Virus record (IMG/VR): IMGVR_UViG_3300030397_000677
Coordinates: 1 to 36,441 of that record
Source of the DNA: a virus
Taxonomy: Duplodnaviria > Caudoviricetes
DNA length: 36,441 bases
Strand: one strand, 5' to 3'
Shown: positions 9,841 through 36,441 of the stretch, one piece after another
How positions within the stretch are numbered: the first letter of the stretch is position 1
How the letters are laid out: each line of letters opens with the position of its first letter
Notes under the pieces: generated by a model
Databases searched by the model: none
Told to the model about the DNA's origin: nothing
What the model saw: only the letters and a program-made list of their open reading frames with translations
Made by a program: the position numbers and the translations under genes

Positions 9841-10359
9841 ATGAGCAAAAAAATAACTTATCAAGATCAAGTAAAAAAGAAACAAGAACACGACCGGAAA
9901 CAAGCATTAAAAACAGGGAATTTTATAACTCTGAAAATGCCAAGCGGTTATGATTGGAAAGTTTTACCGATTTCAGTTCATCAATTAGCGATTTGCGGAG
10001 TGCTTCCAATGCACTTAGTAGAGCAGATGGAAAACATTGCTGATATAACAGACGAGCAAATTTCCGATGCCTTAAAAGACAACGATGTAAAAGTAAGCGG
10101 TTCGCAAATGACCGACTTTTACAATACGGTCGGAGCAATAATGGTCGATAATGTTATTGAGCCGAGAATTCTTTTGAATCCGCCAAAAAAAGAGCCGGAC
10201 TTTGAATATCAATTAGTCAAAGATTTATACAGTAAAGATTTAGATAAATTTACAAATTGGATTCAAGGAGGTGCTCAAGTTTCGGAAAACAACTTTCGCA
10301 CTTCAAATCGTAAAAAACGACGCAAATCTAAAAATCGTCGCAATCCTAACAAAACATAA
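9841..10359 (+). CDS. Tail assembly chaperone (gpG-like)
   Basis: Lies between tail tube and TMP; LKMPSG near the N-terminus; ends QGG...NNFR followed by a basic tail that overlaps the next ORF. Confidence 0.75.
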   Translation: MSKKITYQDQVKKKQEHDRKQALKTGNFITLKMPSGYDWKVLPISVHQLAICGVLPMHLVEQMENIADITDEQISDALKDNDVKVSGSQMTDFYNTVGAIMVDNVIEPRILLNPPKKEPDFEYQLVKDLYSKDLDKFTNWIQGGAQVSENNFRTSNRKKRRKSKNRRNPNKT

Positions 10360-10585
10360 TTCTTGTCGAGCAAGCGATTTCTTTCCCGAAATTTCTAAAG
10401 ACGAATTAACTGCTTTTGAGTTTGATTTGGCAGTAGCTTATCGCCGTGAAATTTATGAGAATGAACGGGAAGCGGAAAAGTTTAAATTGCAACTCGAGTC
10501 GATGGCAATGTTGCAATATGGCGTAAAACCCGATGGCACAGGAAGCGACCGACCAACAAAACAATTTAAGACTCAAGAATTGTAA
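10295..10585 (+). CDS. Tail assembly chaperone extension (gpT-like), probably reached by +1 frameshift
   Basis: +1 frame ORF with no ATG until near its end; RASDFFPEISKDELTAFEFDLA resembles gpT segments; candidate shift site TTT_CGC at 10294-10299. Confidence 0.65.
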   Translation, partial: FALQIVKNDANLKIVAILTKHNSCRASDFFPEISKDELTAFEFDLAVAYRREIYENEREAEKFKLQLESMAMLQYGVKPDGTGSDRPTKQFKTQEL

Positions 10586-22646: not shown

Positions 22647-23543
22647 TTAAAATAAACTTTGTTGGACTTCAAACTGCTTAAAATGTTGATGGAACTTTTT
22701 CGGATAATCTCTTGTTTGCAAGTGTTCGGGAAACGATTCAAAAGTCGCACCTTTGGAATCCGGCATTTCATAACGCAAAGGCACATCAAAACCGTTTTCT
22801 TTATAAAGCGGGTTTGTGCCAAGCTGTTTAAGAAAAAAAGCAACATCATTCGATTTGCATTGCTCTTGCAAATCGACAAAATCTTCTAAATGGCTTGGTC
22901 GTGCTTTGGTTATATCCTTTGAAGATTCTCCGCCGGAAACCAACCAATCAATCGGTTTTTTTGCAATGCGAGCAGAATTTAGCAAATAATTGAAATCTGT
23001 TTTTTGTAAATACGGCTCGACATTTATCCATTTCATCACGCTCGGAGTTGATATTAAGTATTCAACTCGTTCCAAGTATTCGGAAGATTCAACACTAACG
23101 CCAAGACATAAGTTTTCGATTATTTGGTTAGATTGATAATAGCTGTTACAAAATTCAAACATATTTTCGGCATACTTAGTTTGAACTAAAAAAATATGTT
23201 GCTTTGCTTTTTTTATTACTTGAAAAACTCTTTCGATCCATTCATCCGGCACTTTATCAAAGAAAATATCCGACATAGAATTAACAAAGATTATTTTTGG
23301 CACTCTGATATTTATCGGCTCAAAAAACTTGTCATCATTTTCACGACGGACTTTTCCATTCCAAATCCCTTCCGAATTTGTTAATCCGGCGTATTTGTTT
23401 CGGACTTTTGTGTTGCCGTGTTTTGCAAGATTAAAGGCGATTTTTTGTGCATAACAATTTAAGCATCCGTCGGATATCGGTAGACATCCGACGAATGCGT
23501 TCCAAGTGTGTTCGGCATATTCGATATTTGTAGTTGGAAGCAT
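22647..23543 (-). CDS. DUF5131 / phage Gp37-Gp68 family protein (radical-SAM-like)
   Basis: TWNAFVGCLPISDGCLNCYA (Cx6Cx2C), IFVNSMSDIF, LGVSVE, VEP, WLVSGGES and FFLKQLG family motifs. Confidence 0.9.
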   Translation of the reverse strand: MLPTTNIEYAEHTWNAFVGCLPISDGCLNCYAQKIAFNLAKHGNTKVRNKYAGLTNSEGIWNGKVRRENDDKFFEPINIRVPKIIFVNSMSDIFFDKVPDEWIERVFQVIKKAKQHIFLVQTKYAENMFEFCNSYYQSNQIIENLCLGVSVESSEYLERVEYLISTPSVMKWINVEPYLQKTDFNYLLNSARIAKKPIDWLVSGGESSKDITKARPSHLEDFVDLQEQCKSNDVAFFLKQLGTNPLYKENGFDVPLRYEMPDSKGATFESFPEHLQTRDYPKKFHQHFKQFEVQQSLF

Positions 23544-26655: not shown

Positions 26656-27420
26656 ATGAGCAAATTACTAATCGAAGACCGACCGTTGGTCTTTTCGCCA
26701 AAACTAGCAGAAGCAATCGGAGTTAATAAAGCAATAATATTGCAACAAGTGCATTATCTTTGCACAAGCGGAAACTCCGGCAAGTTTTTACCGGACGGCA
26801 AAAAATATGTTTGGAATTCTTATAAGGATTGGAAAAAGAATTATTTCCCTTTTTGGAGCGTCCGGACAATAGAAAGAATTTTCACACAGCTTGAAGATAA
26901 AAAATTAAAATTATTGGTTTCAAAAAAGCCATATTCTAAGACCGGAAATCATACAAAATACTATCGGGTTTCAGAATCAAAATTAACCGAGTTAGAGCGT
27001 CAAATTGGCGTATTCGATGCCGACAAAATGGCGGAAACGGATACGACAAATAGTCGAAAAGGAAACCGACAAAATGGCGATAACTCAAACCGACAAAATG
27101 GCGGATTCTTTCCAAAGACTTCTCCAGAGACTTCATCAGAGATTTCATCAAATATTGATTGCGAAATTTGGGAAAATTTTCTTTCAAAAATAAAGCAAAC
27201 ATTAAATCCGCAAATCTTTGATGCTTGGATCAAACCGTTAATTATTAAAAGCTATGATAAGGAAAATAAAGTCTTTGAAATACAAGCATCTGTAATTAAC
27301 CAAGAATGGATTATTAAAAACTACGCTGATTTATTTTTAGAAGTTTTTCACGAATTAGGAATCGAAGACCATAAAATAAGTTGGTGCATACTAAAGGAGT
27401 CGGTATTTTATGAGCAATAG
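26656..27420 (+). CDS. Replication initiator: N-terminal winged helix, C-terminal DnaA domain I-like region
   Basis: LLIEDRPLVFSPKLAEAIGVNKAIILQQVHY, WNSYKDW..FPFWSVRTIERIF, TKYYRV; internal iterons; C-terminal IWENFLSKIKQTLNPQIFDAWIKPL. Confidence 0.85.
   Translation: MSKLLIEDRPLVFSPKLAEAIGVNKAIILQQVHYLCTSGNSGKFLPDGKKYVWNSYKDWKKNYFPFWSVRTIERIFTQLEDKKLKLLVSKKPYSKTGNHTKYYRVSESKLTELERQIGVFDADKMAETDTTNSRKGNRQNGDNSNRQNGGFFPKTSPETSSEISSNIDCEIWENFLSKIKQTLNPQIFDAWIKPLIIKSYDKENKVFEIQASVINQEWIIKNYADLFLEVFHELGIEDHKISWCILKESVFYEQ
26997..27160. repeat. Replication origin iterons
   Basis: CCGACAAAATGGCG is exact at 27020, 27066 and 27090 and degenerate at 26997 and 27043. 12-bp CAGAGACTTCAT-like units follow at 27113, 27125, 27137 (and 27149). 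Confidence 0.8.
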
Positions 27421-30389: not shown

Positions 30390-30950
30390 ATGAAAAATAA
30401 AAGTCAAAAACAAATTTCTAATAAAAATAAGTTTGCCGATAATCCAAGAAAAATCTCTAAAGAACAAAAGAAATTATTAAAAGAACACTTGGAAGAGCTT
30501 GGCGATTTATCCGGCGTTGTATATTGCCGGAAAAATAAAGCATACGTCGGCGGGAATCAAAGAAGCGATGTGCTTGACGGTTCTGAAATTATTATTGCGG
30601 AAGAGTATGAAAAACCAACCAAAGCCGGAACGGTCGCAGTCGGTGAAATTATTTACAAAAGCGAAAGATACTCTTATCGCGAAGTCGAATTTTCAAAAAA
30701 ACAATTTGATAAAGCGTGTATCGTTGCAAACTCGGACGGCGGAGTGTTTGATTGGAATGCTTTAAGTTCCGGCACTTGGACGACCAAGCCTTTCGACGAT
30801 TGGGGATTAAAATTTCCGCAAGGTTTCCGGAGATCTGCAAAAAAAGAATCTAAGGAAACCGAAACGGGCGAAGCCGAAAGAAAAGAGCTGTTAAAAAAAT
30901 ACGGCGTTGAGCTTGGTCAACTTTGGCAACTTGGCGACCATCGGCTTTAA
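30390..30950 (+). CDS. ParB/Srx-like domain protein (N-terminal part of an interrupted ParB-methyltransferase fusion)
   Basis: DNPRKIS and VGGNQR motifs; ends GQLWQLGDHRL, the usual lead-in to the methyltransferase domain. Confidence 0.75.
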   Translation: MKNKSQKQISNKNKFADNPRKISKEQKKLLKEHLEELGDLSGVVYCRKNKAYVGGNQRSDVLDGSEIIIAEEYEKPTKAGTVAVGEIIYKSERYSYREVEFSKKQFDKACIVANSDGGVFDWNALSSGTWTTKPFDDWGLKFPQGFRRSAKKESKETETGEAERKELLKKYGVELGQLWQLGDHRL

Positions 30951-31634
30951 TGCGGAAACTCAAGTGACAAAAAAGATGTTGCGAGCTTGATTGGCGAGAA
31001 CGAAATGGATTTAGTTTTTACCGATCCGCCGTATAATGCTTTGAGGTCCTGGAATGCAAAACCCGCCAAAAAATACACACGGTTAAACAAGCGGGATTGG
31101 TTTGATAACGACAATATGAGTTGGAAAGATTTTGAAATTTTCTTGACTGAAGTATTTGAAAACTTTAACTCGCATTCGATTTATGTGTGTTGCGACTTTA
31201 GGATTTACGATTTAGTTAAACTTTGCATCGAGAAGCAAAAATATAAAATTCGACATTGCATCGTTTGGAAAAAGAATGTTTGGGGATTGGGCAAGCGTTA
31301 TCGTTTTCAACACGAATTTATTATTTATGCAACAAAGGGAAACGCACCTTTTTTCGGCGATAAATCACAGAGCGACGTTTGGGAAATTGATGTCGACCGA
31401 AAGACCAACCATAAAACGCCAAAACCTTCCGAACTTCCAAGACGTGCCATAATTAACTCATCAAAATTAAACGATAATGTTATCGACTTTTTTACCGGAG
31501 CCGGATCGACGCTTATTGCTTGCGAGCAGGAAAAGCGTCGTTTTTTCGGCTTGGAACTTTCGCCGGAATCGGTCGCCGTAACTTTGGAAAGGTTTTACAA
31601 ATTTACAAATAAAAAACCGAAATTGATAAATTGA
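30951..31634 (+). CDS. Beta-class N6-adenine/N4-cytosine DNA methyltransferase domain, in frame after a single TAA
   Basis: CGNSSDKKDVASL, DLVFTDPPY (motif IV), IVWKK, HEFIIY, HKTPKP, DFFTGAGSTLIAC (motif I) and GLELSP. Possible independent TTG start at 30987. Confidence 0.85.
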   Translation, partial: CGNSSDKKDVASLIGENEMDLVFTDPPYNALRSWNAKPAKKYTRLNKRDWFDNDNMSWKDFEIFLTEVFENFNSHSIYVCCDFRIYDLVKLCIEKQKYKIRHCIVWKKNVWGLGKRYRFQHEFIIYATKGNAPFFGDKSQSDVWEIDVDRKTNHKTPKPSELPRRAIINSSKLNDNVIDFFTGAGSTLIACEQEKRRFFGLELSPESVAVTLERFYKFTNKKPKLIN

Positions 31635-31638
31635 TTTT

Positions 31639-32226
31639 ATGAAAAAATTAAGCTCAAAAAATAAATATAAAGATAATCCGAGAATAATTACCGAAAAAGA
31701 GCAAAAACTTTTAAAAAAGCATCTTAAAGAATTCGGCGATTTATCTGGGATTGTTTATTGCGTTAATAACAAAGCATTTGTCGGCGGAAATCAACGTAGC
31801 GACGCTTTGGACGGTTTGGAAATTAACATTCGGGAAAGGTTTGAAAAACCAACCAAATCAAAGACCGTTGCTTATGGCGATATCGTTGGAAAAAACGGCG
31901 AGTTGTATGCTTATCGTGAAGTAAAATTCACCAAGCAACAATTTAAAAAGGCTTGCATAGTTGCCAACTCAAACGGCGGAGCTTTTGATTGGGCAAAACT
32001 AACGACGGATGTTTGGAATAAAGAAAACCTAAAAGGCTGGGGTGTGAATTTTCCCGCCGGATTTGAAAACTTCGGAAAGAAGCAAAAAAAGAAAGTTGAA
32101 TTTGAAGCTAATTCAAAAGGTGAAAAATTATTTTTTCTCAATATCCAATGCGACGATGAAAATCAATGCAAGGAACTTTACAATCAATTTATAGAAAAAG
32201 GATTTAACTGCAAAATAGTTACTTAA
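31639..32226 (+). CDS. Second ParB/Srx-like protein, paralogue of 30390
   Basis: DNPRIIT, GDLSGIVYC, VGGNQRSD and KACIVANS shared with 30390; short C-terminal IQCDDENQCKELYNQFIEKGFNCKI domain. Confidence 0.75.
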   Translation: MKKLSSKNKYKDNPRIITEKEQKLLKKHLKEFGDLSGIVYCVNNKAFVGGNQRSDALDGLEINIRERFEKPTKSKTVAYGDIVGKNGELYAYREVKFTKQQFKKACIVANSNGGAFDWAKLTTDVWNKENLKGWGVNFPAGFENFGKKQKKKVEFEANSKGEKLFFLNIQCDDENQCKELYNQFIEKGFNCKIVT

Positions 32227-32230
32227 AATT

Positions 32231-32527
32231 ATGAGTGAAATATACGACGATTTAATGCAAATAATAACTGAAGCCGAGCAATCTTCGCCAAGAATTCCAA
32301 ATAGTGAAATAAAGGTAAATGACGGAATTTATATTTTGCCGTGCAATGAGAAAAAAGAATTGGTTGGTCTTGATTATGAAGTCTTAAATTTTCATTTACA
32401 GAAACAAGGCTTAACAGTTATAAAAACTGAGTTTTTGCAAGTTGAAAATTACGGCGATTGTTATGTGATGCCAAAACCAAAAGTTAATTTATTTGATCAA
32501 AAATTTCGATGGGGCTGGAAATGGTAA
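32231..32527 (+). CDS. Hypothetical protein
   Basis: 98 aa, between the ParB-like and ATPase genes. Confidence 0.55.
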   Translation: MSEIYDDLMQIITEAEQSSPRIPNSEIKVNDGIYILPCNEKKELVGLDYEVLNFHLQKQGLTVIKTEFLQVENYGDCYVMPKPKVNLFDQKFRWGWKW

Positions 32528-33249
32528 AGAAAATTCCAAAAAATGTAAAAGTAAAACTTGAATCCGAAATAATCGACGATTATTACACAAAGCGAGCTTG
32601 TGACTCACAAGATTTAGATATCAAGAAAAAATCACGGCATATTTTAGAAGTGCAAAACATTGCTCCGGAATCTGATTGGAGCATCGGTGTTATTTTTGGT
32701 TCATCAGGAAGCGGAAAAACTTCACTAGCAAAAAAATTGTTTGGTGCAAATTGTTTTCAAACAGCTTTGAATTTGGAAAAACCGATAATCTCACAATTTG
32801 GCGATTCAATGAATTTTGAAGATCGTGCAAAATTATTAAATGGCATCGGATTAAATTCCGTTCCGTGTTGGGTTCGCCAAGCCAAAACTTTATCGAATGG
32901 GCAAAGGGCAAGAGCGGAAGCATCATTATTGATTTCCGACCAATCTAAAAATTTAGTTTGTATCGACGAATGGACTTCCGTTGTTGACCGGCCGGTTGCT
33001 AAGGTGATGAGCCATTGTTTGCAAAAATTTGCAAGGAAACAAAAAAAGAAAATTATTTTAGTTACTTGCCATCGGGACGTTATCGAATGGCTCAAAGCTG
33101 ATTGGATGATTGATTGCAATACTGAAAAGTTTATAAACCGAAGTGAATTAAAACAAGGTTTTTTTTTGAGCCAAAAACAGAACTTAAATTCGACATCCGA
33201 AGGATCGACCGAGAAAGTTGGAAGTATTTTAGCAAGTATCATTATTTGA
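32521..33249 (+). CDS. Soluble ABC-type ATPase (N-terminal part of ATPase-GNAT)
   Basis: Walker A GSSGSGKT, signature LSNGQ, Walker B VCIDEW, H-loop VTCH; no TM partner. Start is ATG 32509 or 32521. Confidence 0.85.
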   Translation: MVKKIPKNVKVKLESEIIDDYYTKRACDSQDLDIKKKSRHILEVQNIAPESDWSIGVIFGSSGSGKTSLAKKLFGANCFQTALNLEKPIISQFGDSMNFEDRAKLLNGIGLNSVPCWVRQAKTLSNGQRARAEASLLISDQSKNLVCIDEWTSVVDRPVAKVMSHCLQKFARKQKKKIILVTCHRDVIEWLKADWMIDCNTEKFINRSELKQGFFLSQKQNLNSTSEGSTEKVGSILASIII

Positions 33250-33689
33250 GCGACCAAATGCCAGGCGGGAATTTATTTTGTTACGGACTTTTTCACGGCG
33301 ACGATCAAATTGGTTTTCAATGTTTCGCAAATTATGTTCCTCGTGAGCGTGATAAACGAATGATTTACCATTCTAATCGGACGGTTATTCATCCGGACTT
33401 TCAAGGCTTCGGTCTTGGGATTAAATTTGTAAATGCTTGCACGAAACATTTTGTTGATAAATTTGGCTATGAAATAAGAGCAAAGGGTTCACACTCCGCA
33501 ATGTTTTACTCAAGAATAAATGATGAAAATTGGGAATTGTTAAGGGTTCGGCGAACGTTTGGCTCAATTAAAAAAAATCACGATTTCGGAGCTCTCAATC
33601 GGCGAACGGCTTATCGGGAATACGGAATAAAAACTTATCATTTTCGTTATGTCGGACACGATAAAAAACTGTTTAACATTAAACATTAA
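33168..33689 (+). CDS. GNAT (Mom-like) acyltransferase domain, in the -1 frame from the ATPase
   Basis: The frame is open from the T9 run: EPKTELKFDIRRIDRESWKYFSKYHYLS...; acyl-CoA motif A RTVIHPDFQGFGLG. Confidence 0.8.
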   Translation, partial: EPKTELKFDIRRIDRESWKYFSKYHYLSDQMPGGNLFCYGLFHGDDQIGFQCFANYVPRERDKRMIYHSNRTVIHPDFQGFGLGIKFVNACTKHFVDKFGYEIRAKGSHSAMFYSRINDENWELLRVRRTFGSIKKNHDFGALNRRTAYREYGIKTYHFRYVGHDKKLFNIKH

Positions 33690-34404
33690 AAGGGAATATT
33701 TTTTAGAAATTCTCGAGGGAAAAAAAACCGAAGAATTTCGCAAAGTTTCAAAACATTATAAATCCCGAATTGATGGGAAAGACATTGAAACTCTTTTGCT
33801 AAAAAATGGATATTCAAAAAATGCCGATTGGCTTTTGGTTAATGTTGAAAAAATTTACAAGCGTCGCCGGAAAGTTAAACTATACGGCGACAAACCGACT
33901 CTTGTTTATGTGATCAAATTGGGCGATGTGATAGATAGTTTTGTCGCTGATAATGATTCAACGGAAGAGCAAGGAAAGAATTACGGCAGAGGGCAACATC
34001 CAAATTCACGAAAAAACTTGATTCTCGGTGCTTGGCAAGAAGGCGAATCCGGCAATCCGGACGGAAAAAAAAAGGGAACTAAAGACCGTGCAAAAGTGTT
34101 AAATTCTTTCTTGCATTTGAAAGTTAAAGTTCCAAATCCGCTCGATGCAAACGGCGATAAAACTTTCGTCGATTTGCCGGAAATAATCGAGATGACTGTT
34201 TATGAACAAACTGCAATGGCTTTAATCGGCAGAGCTTTATCCGGTGATGTAAGGGCATTCAAAGAAATCCAAGATACATTACACGGCAAACATATAAACC
34301 GTCGCTCGCAGTTAATTGATGAAAATGAAGATAAGTCGTCCGAATTAGACGAAGCTTATATCGACGATTTAGAAAGAATTTACGGCAAAGACAAAGAGGA
34401 TTAA
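33649..34404 (+). CDS. ASCH domain fused to a terminase small subunit-like (DUF5681-type) region
   Basis: N-terminal LTLNIKREYFLEILEGKKTEEFR (GxKxxExR); then HPNSRKNL..WQEGESGNPDGKKKG and ALSGDVRAFKEIQDTLHGK; lies upstream of terL. Confidence 0.75.
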   Translation: MSDTIKNCLTLNIKREYFLEILEGKKTEEFRKVSKHYKSRIDGKDIETLLLKNGYSKNADWLLVNVEKIYKRRRKVKLYGDKPTLVYVIKLGDVIDSFVADNDSTEEQGKNYGRGQHPNSRKNLILGAWQEGESGNPDGKKKGTKDRAKVLNSFLHLKVKVPNPLDANGDKTFVDLPEIIEMTVYEQTAMALIGRALSGDVRAFKEIQDTLHGKHINRRSQLIDENEDKSSELDEAYIDDLERIYGKDKED

Positions 34405-34408
34405 ATTT

Positions 34409-34789
34409 ATGGCTACAAACGGAATTGTTTCTTTTACAGAAAATGGAGATGTTAAAACAAAAATTATTGTTGGTTGTGACGGTTATAATGCTGAACAATT
34501 TGCAATCGCATCTCTTCACAAAAAATTTGAAAAACTTTCTGATTATTATGATTTTGCACTTGCTAACGATTTTGGATGTCGTGGGTGTTTAGTTGTAATG
34601 AATTCAGAAGAGCATATATTTATCGGCGACGGCGAAATAATTCCTGATTTATATTATGCGACTTTTAATGTTTGGTTTGTAAATCCGAGATGGACAAAAG
34701 GCATCGCAAGCAATGTTATTAAAATCAACCAAACAAGAAAAAGAATCTATCGTTTTAATTTTGATATTCAAAAAGTAAAAATTGACTAA
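34409..34789 (+). CDS. Hypothetical protein between terS and terL
   Basis: 126 aa, contains GCDGYNA and FGCRGCL; stop abuts the terL ATG. Confidence 0.65.
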   Translation: MATNGIVSFTENGDVKTKIIVGCDGYNAEQFAIASLHKKFEKLSDYYDFALANDFGCRGCLVVMNSEEHIFIGDGEIIPDLYYATFNVWFVNPRWTKGIASNVIKINQTRKRIYRFNFDIQKVKID

Positions 34790-36235
34790 ATGTCGGGAAA
34801 TCCAAAATTAAAAAAATTGTCGCCGGAAGCATTTAAGCGTTATGCACGAACGGCGAAACGTCTTGGCGTTCCAAAAGATACCTTTCAAAGATTCCACAAA
34901 GCTCGGTATGTAGCACAAGAAAAACAATTAGAGTTTCACGCATCCGCAAGATTGGCGGATAAAATTCCGGAACTTGTCGACATCGGATACGGCGGAGCTC
35001 GCGGCGGTGGAAAAACTTATGCAATTTTCGCACAAATTGCACTTGACGACTGCCAACGAGTTCCAAATCTAAAAGTTTTATATTTGCGAAAACACGGCGG
35101 AGCAATTTCCGAAACGCTGGACGAATTGGCAAAAAGCGGATTGCTTGCAAACATCCCGCATAAAGCATCCGGTCGCAAAATCAAATTTGCCAACGGCTCG
35201 CAAATCATAATCGGGCATTTTCAATATGAAAAAGATATAAATAAATATCTTGGTCAAAACTACCAAATCATCGCCATCGAAGAGGCGACGCAGTTATCCG
35301 AATCAAAAATAATAAATATCAAAACTTGCAATCGTGCGAGCCGTCGTATGAATTTCAAGCCGAGAGTTTATTATTCGACGAACCCCGGCGGAGTTGGACA
35401 TCAATGGTTTAAGGATAAGTTTATCGTTCCTTTCCGTGATGAAAAAAGCGGAAAAAAACAAACAACGACTCGTTTCATTCCGGCGACTGTCGATGATAAT
35501 GCACAAATCGACGAAAATTATATTAAGAATAATCTTGATACTTTGGTCGGTTGGCAGTTAAAGGCTTGGCGTTTTGGCGATTGGGATGTTTTTGCCGGAC
35601 AATTTTTCGACCGTTTCAAATATGATGAACACACTTTCGATATTGATAAATCAATTTTTGCGGATTATGAATTGCCGACTCGTGATATCAGAATTTGGGG
35701 GTCGATGGACTGGGGATTTCAGCACTACAATACATTTTATCTTTTCGCAAAATATGACGGTATGCTTTACACGCTCGGCGAAAGTTGCAAGCGACAAGCA
35801 AATGCCGAAGAGGTTGCAAACGGTATAAAAGAAGTCGTGAATCAATTTTCTTTTCCCGACGGCGAAACTTTAGATGTTTTTGATTTGGAAGATATTGTCG
35901 CCGGATCGGATGTTTTTAAGTTTGACGGCGAGCGTGGAACGACTCTTTCGGACGAATATGGCTTGCACGATATAATCTTAAATCAAGCAAACCAAACAAG
36001 GCTTGCCGGAGCATCAAAAATTTATTCATTACTTGGCGACTCAAATCAAGGCAAGATAAGCCGTGTTAGAATTTCACGTAGTTGTCGAATGTTAATCAAA
36101 CAACTTCCGGCGATGCTACACGACGAAAAAACGCCGGGCGATGTAAAAAAAGTAAATGTTGATGAATTTGGAAAAGGCGGAGACGATGCTTATGATGGTT
36201 GGCGTTATGGCGTGATGGAGTTTGAAGATTCGGTC
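34790..36235 (+). CDS. terL: Terminase large subunit
   Basis: Walker A GGARGGGKT, Walker B IAIEEAT, STNPGG, nuclease GSMDWG and DDAYDGWRY. The true end is probably SVGLY* as read at 100-117. Confidence 0.95.
36131..36235. repeat. Terminal direct repeat copy 2
   Basis: Identical to 1-105. Confidence 0.95.
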
Positions 36236-36402
36236 TTGGGATTAAATATGTAAATGCTTGCACGAAACATTTTGTTGATAAATTTGGCTATGAAATAAGA
36301 GCAAAGGGTTCACACTCCGCAATGTTTTACTCAAGAATAAATGATGAAAATTGGGAATTGTTAAGGGTTCGGCGAACGTTTGGCTCAATTAAAAAAAATC
36401 AC
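36229..36402. repeat. Second copy of 33408-33581 (GNAT internal segment), likely chimeric contig end
   Basis: 174-bp direct repeat with one mismatch (33427 T vs 36248 A), joined through shared TTCGGTC. Confidence 0.85.
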
Positions 36403-36441
36403 AACAAAAAAAGAGGCAAAAAAATAAAATGGACCCAGAAG

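Follow-up and report, generated by a model that had tools for sequence, protein, structure and literature searches.

A probable programmed recoding site between an ABC ATPase and a GNAT acyltransferase in a tailed-phage ParB-terminase locus

The ATPase-acyltransferase gene

The IMG/VR record IMGVR_UViG_3300030397_000677, here called the window (36,441 nucleotides), is a tailed-phage genome in which an ABC ATPase and a GNAT acyltransferase domain are encoded in two frames of what appears to be one gene. The joint between both domains is very probably a site of programmed recoding. All features lie on the plus strand unless marked otherwise. The ATPase frame (32509..33249) encodes a short product of 246 amino acids with Walker A (32698), signature (32890), Walker B (32956) and His-switch (33061) motifs, followed by a 27-amino-acid tail. 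A run of nine thymines, T9 (33159..33167), is located in the interdomain linker. An extra U or a -1 shift at this run would join the ATPase to the GNAT domain in the -1 frame (33165..33689), yielding about 393 amino acids. The following stretch (33168..33249) is dual-coded: it holds the tail of the short ATPase, ending at an invariant stop (33247-33249), and the N-terminus of the GNAT domain.

The GNAT domain matches Pfam GNAT and phrog_11143. It has a QxxGxG motif at 33390, which we take to be an acyl-CoA-type loop. Profile positions 2-198 of phrog_11143 cover the ATPase and positions 202-354 the GNAT domain in the -1 frame beyond T9. The sequence-only reading of this DNA had counted ATPase and GNAT as two units; the profile spans both, and a single recoded gene replaces them. 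In a structure model of a fused relative (predicted local distance difference test score, pLDDT, 84), the slip site falls in the linker after the complete ABC fold, between two complete domains. T9 is the sole T-run of at least nine in any plus-strand coding frame of the genome.

Slip signals in related genes

An alignment scan fetched 173 related loci: the best 80 of 230 viral, the best 80 of 279 metagenomic and all 13 genomic loci. Four annotated phage regions were added, giving 178 loci with the window. Both domains are present in 175; three without a GNAT match were dropped. Loci below 90% identity, the window included, gave 102 representatives.

Among the best 119 homologues, 79 are long and 74 of these have FFF at the joint. 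The other 40 are short: 36 share the I-I/T-I tail of the window, two are in the third frame and two are truncated. At the 175 junctions, 147 genes are in frame, 26 need a -1 shift and two need +1. A recognised signal (T-run, A-run or Shine-Dalgarno (SD)-like motif) is located at the joint in 99/102 representatives, comprising 49 T-runs, 12 A-runs, 34 cassettes of the form SD-NNN-CTT and four other SD motifs. The T-run class consists of T10 in frame (40), T9 in frame (1), T9 split (5, including the window), T11 (2) and T12 (1). TTT TTT TTT is present in all 41 in-frame T-run genes; their own codon use predicts about 25 of 40. Nine A-run genes are split and three are in frame.

In-frame genes without a run number 39, and in 34 of them GGAGG is followed, after three free bases, by CTT (33) or GTT (1) at a fixed frame and place. 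The base after CTT or GTT is T or C in 32/34, and the spacer codon is free. Elsewhere, AGG makes up 12% of the Arg codons and CTT 18% of the Leu codons. As in recoding of the dnaX type, the slip site is positioned at a domain boundary and is conserved beyond the need of the amino acid sequence. A quick tree placed the T-run class in one branch (SH-aLRT 84) inside a grade of cassette genes, with the window as a long basal T-run branch and the A-runs scattered.

Some joints differ. The split genes of P335, Vinitor-27 and MismyG (loci L176, L177 and L187) need -1 and have no long run; P335 and MismyG have GTT TTT CAA and then CCC CAC in common, possibly another shift signal. In L043, L052, L103 and L120, the SD motif is followed by ATG/GTG GTT GGT in place of CTT, and here too the frame of the short product remains open.

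Selection on the short product

Between the signal and one stop, the alternative frame (+1 to GNAT) stays open in 99/99 representatives with an HYL anchor; the anchor is missing in 3/102, leaving 99 testable genes. Synonymous resampling with the codon usage of each gene predicts 34 open and 36 stopped frames out of 99. The stop is formed by a Leu codon and the next base. This Leu codon is xTA or xTG in every case, and A is invariably the first base of the codon after it. Six of six more distant phages (phiE255, P12024S, MismyG, NHagos, SL25 and EastWest) retain the open frame and the stop; the five in-frame ones have purine-rich SD-like bases, three nucleotides and then CTT or GTT. With 99/99 against 34 and 36 and with 6/6 distant phages, selection acts on both frames, again as in dnaX. 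Because the open frame and the fixed stop are found in all 99 genes, split and 'intact' genes likely encode the same short ATPase and long ATPase-GNAT with the default reversed. A programmed two-product recoding site at the ATPase|GNAT joint is highly probable on these conserved sequence features.

A TTG restart overlapping the stop of the short product was considered as the reason for this stop and rejected. The codon is TTA or CTA in 66/99, and the restart product would also lose the invariant W..HY helix.

A T-run could also serve as a phase-variation switch at the DNA level, by which part of the phage population would have the acyltransferase turned on or off. T9, T10, T11 and T12 do occur in neighbouring branches, and the third frame is used by two of the 119 homologues. 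Under an OFF phase, nothing would preserve the open tail and the fixed stop of 99/99 genes. Phases are mixed in 0/31 multi-member clusters, the 34 cassette genes have no repeat, and contigs of three sequencing runs, which mask rare variants, have only T9. Phase variation is very unlikely.

Literature searches, with subscription papers and Iyer et al. 2013 outside their scope, found no report of recoding in the ABC-ATPase/GNAT family. Terms for a recoding of the family are absent from the first 300,000 characters of PMC5009743, from the main text and two of three supplements of PMC3711429, and from PMC6078989. This kind of ABC-GNAT module was predicted earlier.

Transcriptional slippage or ribosomal frameshifting

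In the window, some transcripts would receive an extra U when RNA polymerase passes T9. Such slippage is favoured over -1 ribosomal frameshifting, about two to one, because no conserved stimulatory hairpin was found. The 60 nucleotides 3' of the site fold no better than shuffled sequences (window z = +0.5, T-run mean z about +0.5), in a pseudoknot-free fold model. T9 genes (needing -1) and T10 genes (needing +1) are intermixed on the quick tree, which a bidirectional slip of the polymerase explains more simply. A run length of 9-10 matches the RNA-DNA hybrid, and 9 T's are enough for polymerase slippage in dnaX of Thermus thermophilus (PMC5009743). The same two products may be made by -1 ribosomal frameshifting on U_UUU_UUU. 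In the ATPase frame, T9 fits the X_XXY_YYZ heptamer pattern, and since the SD-CTT cassette of some relatives can act only through the ribosome, the family does include ribosomal solutions. For the window this route seems unlikely, given that a 3' structure was found neither there nor at the T-run sites.

The signal type seems to follow the SD use of the neighbouring genes. In loci with at least four open reading frames (ORFs), SD-like gene starts amount to 69/188 (37%) near cassette genes versus 4% in the control, to 20/309 (6%) near T-run genes versus 6%, and to 10/71 near A-run genes versus 7%. The excess near cassette genes and not near T-run genes suggests that runs replace the cassette in hosts with little SD pairing.

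The arrangement resembles dnaX, in which one gene yields an ATPase with or without a C-terminal extension (tau/gamma), in Thermus thermophilus by a T9 run; mechanisms differ between lineages and the default product is reversible (PMC5009743). Unlike dnaX, the phage gene encodes an ABC ATPase and not a clamp loader, and the short product has a tail of conserved length (24-38 amino acids) instead of an immediate stop. The phage family also includes the +1 SD-CUU cassette. This cassette, found in 34 relatives and several cultured phages, recalls that of prfB (RF2) with its SD-like purines, three nucleotides, CTT and mostly T or C next (PMC12421855). The A site in the phages is a sense codon (TGG, CGG, TGT and others) and not TGA, and the shift would truncate the protein rather than complete it. 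The window itself has T9, not the cassette.

The ParB partner and the terminase neighbourhood

The second ParB-like protein of the window (ParB2, 31639..32226) matches phrog_620 and has a C-terminal module of about 33 amino acids (32128-32223). A ParB-like gene is located directly upstream of the ATPase-GNAT gene in 79/80 representatives with room for it, and terminase-cluster genes lie within 3 kb downstream in 42/55. The window has the full phrog_11143 module, with intact ABC motifs followed by GNAT, ParB upstream and terminase downstream. From this neighbourhood survey, the conserved unit is ParB plus ATPase-GNAT, usually near the terminase, and to this extent the sequence-only reading was right.

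The ParB N-domains are variable among the relatives (about 29% identity). The 33-amino-acid C-terminal module stands just before the ATPase in 96/99 representatives and is missing from ParB-methyltransferase fusions and from the first ParB-like domain of the window (ParB1). In Burkholderia phage phiE255, gp28 (L185:3229-3393, 54 amino acids) resembles the module alone, with a weak match of 11.7 bits. Downstream of it, the Mu-like tail operon ends with the ATPase-GNAT and a putative formyltransferase. ParB2 is likely the partner of the ATPase-GNAT, with the C-terminal module as putative adaptor. A ParB-like activator that needs its C-terminal domain was shown for phage T-dioxygenases (PMC13229309). 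These systems share with the window a ParB-like protein without DNA-binding domain, a small C-terminal domain and a position beside a DNA-modifying enzyme (PMC13229309). The enzyme class differs, and the ParB dependence demonstrated there is a prediction here.

The acyltransferase domain and its substrate

The GNAT domain of the window has a GNAT fold in its model (pLDDT 81), with Z up to 12.6 and Foldseek matches. It had been called Mom-like. The Mom family PF25680 gave weak matches in 23/45 members (E up to 0.05, best 5e-4), the window not among them, and phrog_1384 gave weak matches in 7/45 (window E=0.0015). Mom was not among the matches of the fold search or the PDB sequence search, the libraries of which may not contain Mom. 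A helix-turn-helix (HTH)-like insertion is essential for Mom activity (PMC13219725); it was not seen after the last core helix of the window model, in a region with pLDDT 53-69. The phage family has the GNAT fold in common with phage Mu Mom, and its invariant HY pair and a beta-strand Arg recall H58-Y59 and R111 of Mom (PMC13219725). It differs by its size (about 170 amino acids), the fusion to an ABC ATPase, the lack of the HTH-like insertion in the model, and the acyl-CoA-type loop, whereas Mom takes glycyl-tRNA (PMC13219725) and forms N6-carbamoylmethyladenine. The resemblance amounts to weak profile matches and the HY pair; it is weak, and the domain should not be filed as Mom.

Acylation of DNA bases by ABC-GNAT proteins has been predicted (PMC7824862, citing Iyer et al. 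2013), and the literature searches found no experimental trial of this prediction. ABC-ATPase-coupled GNATs of ParB-terminase (ParB-Tls) loci share the domain pair, the ParB neighbour and the terminase linkage with the window (PMC7824862, PMC4738411). The accessible parts of both sources treat the ABC-GNAT as one protein and mention no recoding; here, two products are likely. That the ATPase-GNAT acylates DNA is somewhat favoured as a prediction from its gene context.

The enzyme may instead acylate tRNA, nucleotides or a host protein, in a TmcA/NAT10-like or anti-defence role, with the ASCH domain encoded downstream as the matching eraser. TmcA combines an ATPase with a GNAT. A substrate of this kind agrees with the canonical acyl-CoA loop and with the generic nature of the GNAT matches, RimI/Nat enzymes among them. 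It also agrees with the GxKxxExR motif of the ASCH domain, since ASCH proteins that carry it can strip N4-acetylcytidine from tRNA and nucleosides (10.64898/2026.02.27.708502). ASCH is present in only 16/102 representatives, which speaks against a matching eraser. In Mu-like phiE255, the ATPase-GNAT gene comes after the tail-fibre genes. Mu carries mom after its tail-fibre genes. The linkage to ParB (79/80) and terminase (42/55) matches known DNA-modification loci (PMC4738411, PMC13229309). A substrate other than DNA is rather unlikely.

Predicted function

One split gene would yield a 246-amino-acid ATPase and an ATPase-acyltransferase of about 393 amino acids. Short and long chains would pair via their ABC domains, so that the ATPase dimer would carry less than a full pair of acyltransferases. 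The enzyme would be activated or loaded by the ParB protein, probably by way of the C-terminal module of that protein. The acyl group of an acyl-CoA would go to an exocyclic base amine (N4 of cytosine or N6 of adenine) of replicated DNA. Acylated phage DNA would be guarded against restriction, with acylation taking place before packaging. We assign a probability of about 0.5 to this reading as a whole: a ParB protein and a T9-slipping ABC-ATPase/GNAT, both products of which jointly acylate phage DNA bases before packaging.

Several points weigh against it. No recognised signal was found in 3/102 representatives, two of which are split. The representatives are kin, and the counts overstate independence because the T-run class is a single branch on the quick tree. 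The presence of AGG in 34/34 cassettes is uninformative, since the signal classes were defined by motif and it holds by definition; informative are the frequency, the free spacer and the codon choice. The upkeep of an open 27-amino-acid tail has no explanation in the proposed mechanism. The best structural matches of the window GNAT are generic acetyltransferases of proteins or small molecules. A recognised terminase gene within 3 kb is lacking in 13/55, and the ATPase-GNAT of Nonlabens phage P12024S is flanked by neither ParB nor terminase. The window has 9/32 SD-like starts (control 6/128), unlike other T-run loci, two loci labelled Bacteroidota have the SD cassette, and the SD correlation rests on few independent transitions.

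A still wider reading is improbable, although the same genes could fit it. The family would be a widespread DNA-acylating machine that works only as a mixed oligomer, in which short and long ABC chains come together with the ParB module as adaptor. Recoding fitted to the host would set the subunit ratio, by a prfB-type ribosomal cassette in SD hosts and by polymerase slippage on T- or A-runs otherwise, with either product as the default. The machine would install an undescribed N-acyl base (e.g., N4-acyl-deoxycytidine), and ASCH, here joined to the small terminase, would edit or sense the mark during packaging.

Most family members are annotated as intact single proteins and yet likely hide a recoding site. 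A search for the predicted DNA acyl modification would have to combine ParB with both the short ATPase and the long fusion; codon-optimised constructs would destroy the recoding site. In this family, nature provides a series of T-run, A-run and prfB-like signals that all lead to one outcome. Cultured carriers with harmless hosts (Leptospira biflexa LE4, Lactococcus P335, Pseudoalteromonas SL25 and Gordonia NHagos) make recoding and modification directly testable.

The ASCH-TerS protein and the layout towards terL

Downstream of GNAT, an ASCH domain (33649..33945; phrog_625 E=1e-18, PF04266 weak, GxKxxExR octapeptide) is in frame with a DUF5681 domain (33946..34404; PF18932 E=6.8e-10), which by its position and family we take to be TerS. 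Homologues of the TerS-like domain start near residue 100, and in-frame GTG/TTG codons at 33910-33928 are possible separate TerS starts. An A9 run lies within the TerS half (34065-34073, A_AAA_AAG in frame); three further A9 sites exist, so chance is possible.

Among near-length proteins, the full ASCH-TerS ORF found only itself. Within the best 150 of 528 representative hits, none but itself spanned both halves, and five longer ASCH proteins had no match to the TerS-half profile of the window. ASCH is present in 16/102 representatives, directly after GNAT in about ten. It ends within 13 codons in 14/14 solid cases besides the window, one marginal match aside. Phage MismyG has the same order, ParB, ABC, GNAT, ASCH, small gene and TerL, without the fusion. 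From these comparisons, ASCH is a real but optional companion and its fusion with TerS is private. The fusion likely arose by a private loss of stop and start between usually separate neighbours.

ASCH is predicted to bind modified bases (PMC4738411). ASCH proteins with the GxKxxExR octapeptide can erase N4-acetylcytidine, although the motif alone is no predictor of activity (10.64898/2026.02.27.708502). The window ASCH has the GKER subgroup motif, GxKxxExR in an ASCH-like domain. Because octapeptide ASCH proteins can erase N4-acetylcytidine, an eraser or salvage enzyme seems as plausible as a reader, by analogy, and hints at an N4-acylcytosine chemistry. An ASCH reader on the packaging machine had been proposed as a feature of the system. 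With a fusion that has no counterpart, ASCH separate in 14/14 and a possible de-acylase function, this proposal is not upheld.

All units named in the sequence-only reading exist on the plus strand: ParB-like plus methyltransferase, a second ParB, ABC ATPase, GNAT and ASCH-TerS. They had been described as a tight block directly upstream of terL. The units are neither contiguous nor next to terL because two missed ORFs lie between. One encodes 98 amino acids between ParB2 and the ATPase (32231..32527), an orphan of no family that is absent from the fetched loci (best Atlas score 0.78). The other encodes a viral hypothetical protein of 126 amino acids between TerS and TerL (34409..34789; unnamed viral clusters in Atlas, score 0.95). 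Atlas gave no family for either. TerL itself (34790..36235; PF04466, phrog_979) crosses the join of the circular genome and ends just past position 105.

The ParB-methyltransferase gene

The first gene of the locus encodes ParB1 as its N-terminal half (30390..30950; phrog_498, phrog_620) and an N6/N4 amino-methyltransferase half (30951..31634; PF01555 E=2.8e-27, DPPY at 31023, FxGxG at 31488). An in-frame TAA (30948-30950) separates them. The phrog_498 profile matches both halves of the frame 30390-31634, through the TAA. DPPY and FxGxG are intact; the frame with the N-terminal strand is interrupted by the TAA, and a restart at TTG 30987 would lose this first strand. The methyltransferase half is likely inactive or N-terminally truncated.

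Seven relatives of the methyltransferase were found and six were read (L183 lacks the region); the sixth is a distant stand-alone enzyme. The five close relatives (52-58% identity) all have Met, Ile or Leu at the TAA position. Hence, the TAA is likely a plain nonsense mutation, private to the window. A programmed read-through or shift at the CTT-TAA was rejected: no SD motif precedes it, the +1 frame meets a stop after some 15 codons at most, and the relatives are intact.

ATPase-GNAT is present in 0/7 loci of the methyltransferase relatives. Conversely, methyltransferase profiles match near ATPase-GNAT in 2/101 other representatives, both partially, a count for which 59/102 representatives have 2.2 kb of upstream sequence. 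ParB1 is 58% identical to ParB2 in amino acids (70% in nucleotides over 336 bp), which points to a local duplication followed by fusion. We regard the ParB-methylase as a likely passenger, built on a duplicated ParB domain, that was acquired separately and lost its activity recently. It resembles ParB-N6/N4-methyltransferase fusions before terS (phrog_498) in domain order, DPPY and FxGxG motifs and position. It differs by the in-frame TAA and by a ParB half that resembles the neighbouring ParB2.

The model proposed earlier for this locus has two writers that can be switched, each paired with a separate ParB, plus an ASCH reader attached to TerS through which packaging would depend on the mark. 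The layout exists in the window genome, the catalytic motifs of the methyltransferase are intact, and the ASCH-TerS fusion is seamless and present in three runs. The order ParB-ABC-GNAT-ASCH-(small gene)-TerL recurs in MismyG, and in about ten representatives ASCH is right after GNAT. The methyltransferase stop is private and the methyltransferase is rarely linked (2/101), so two alternative writers are improbable as a general system. The fusion is found in none of the 149 other hits among the best 150 of 528; ASCH stops within 13 codons in 14/14 solid relatives, and separate TerS starts are possible. The model of two writers and a reader is thus very improbable. The idea that both interrupted writers allow switching or tuning survives in part: the ATPase|GNAT joint is tuning-like, and switching of the methylase finds no support, the TAA being absent in 5/5 close relatives.

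Genome, assembly and further observations

The window is one whole assembly, and the tailed-phage genome in it is a circle of 36,130 bp; positions 1-105 recur at 36131-36235. Portal, protease, capsid, tape measure and endolysin genes are present. Past 36235, 174 of 177 bases copy 33405-33581, followed by a high-depth linker (chimeric end, 36226-36441). Contigs from sequencing runs depart from the window at 36235 and carry on into the window start. The tail after 36235 is an assembly artefact that leaves the recoding finding unaffected. It creates a false TerL C-terminus; the true end is just after position 105.

At TAA 30948-30950 and T9, contigs of 3/3 runs had no variant letters and no indels at depths of about 190-315; the runs belong to one study, possibly the window's own source data, and contigs mask rare variants. 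A sequencing error behind TAA or T9 was rejected since the contigs of the three runs concur and the T9 break recurs among relatives. Stop-codon reassignment was rejected as well: 30/41 long ORFs end in TAA.

Two overlapping ORFs at 9841-10585, ahead of the tape measure gene, are positioned like the tail chaperones G/GT; no classic in-frame slippery heptamer was evident near this overlap. On the minus strand, 22647-23543 encodes a member of phrog_2045 that resembles DUF5131; it carries a Cys motif, matches radical-SAM weakly and may be another nucleic-acid enzyme. Positions 26656-27420 encode a protein resembling a replication initiator, in which the C-terminal domain is DnaA_N (PF11638, E=1.6e-9).

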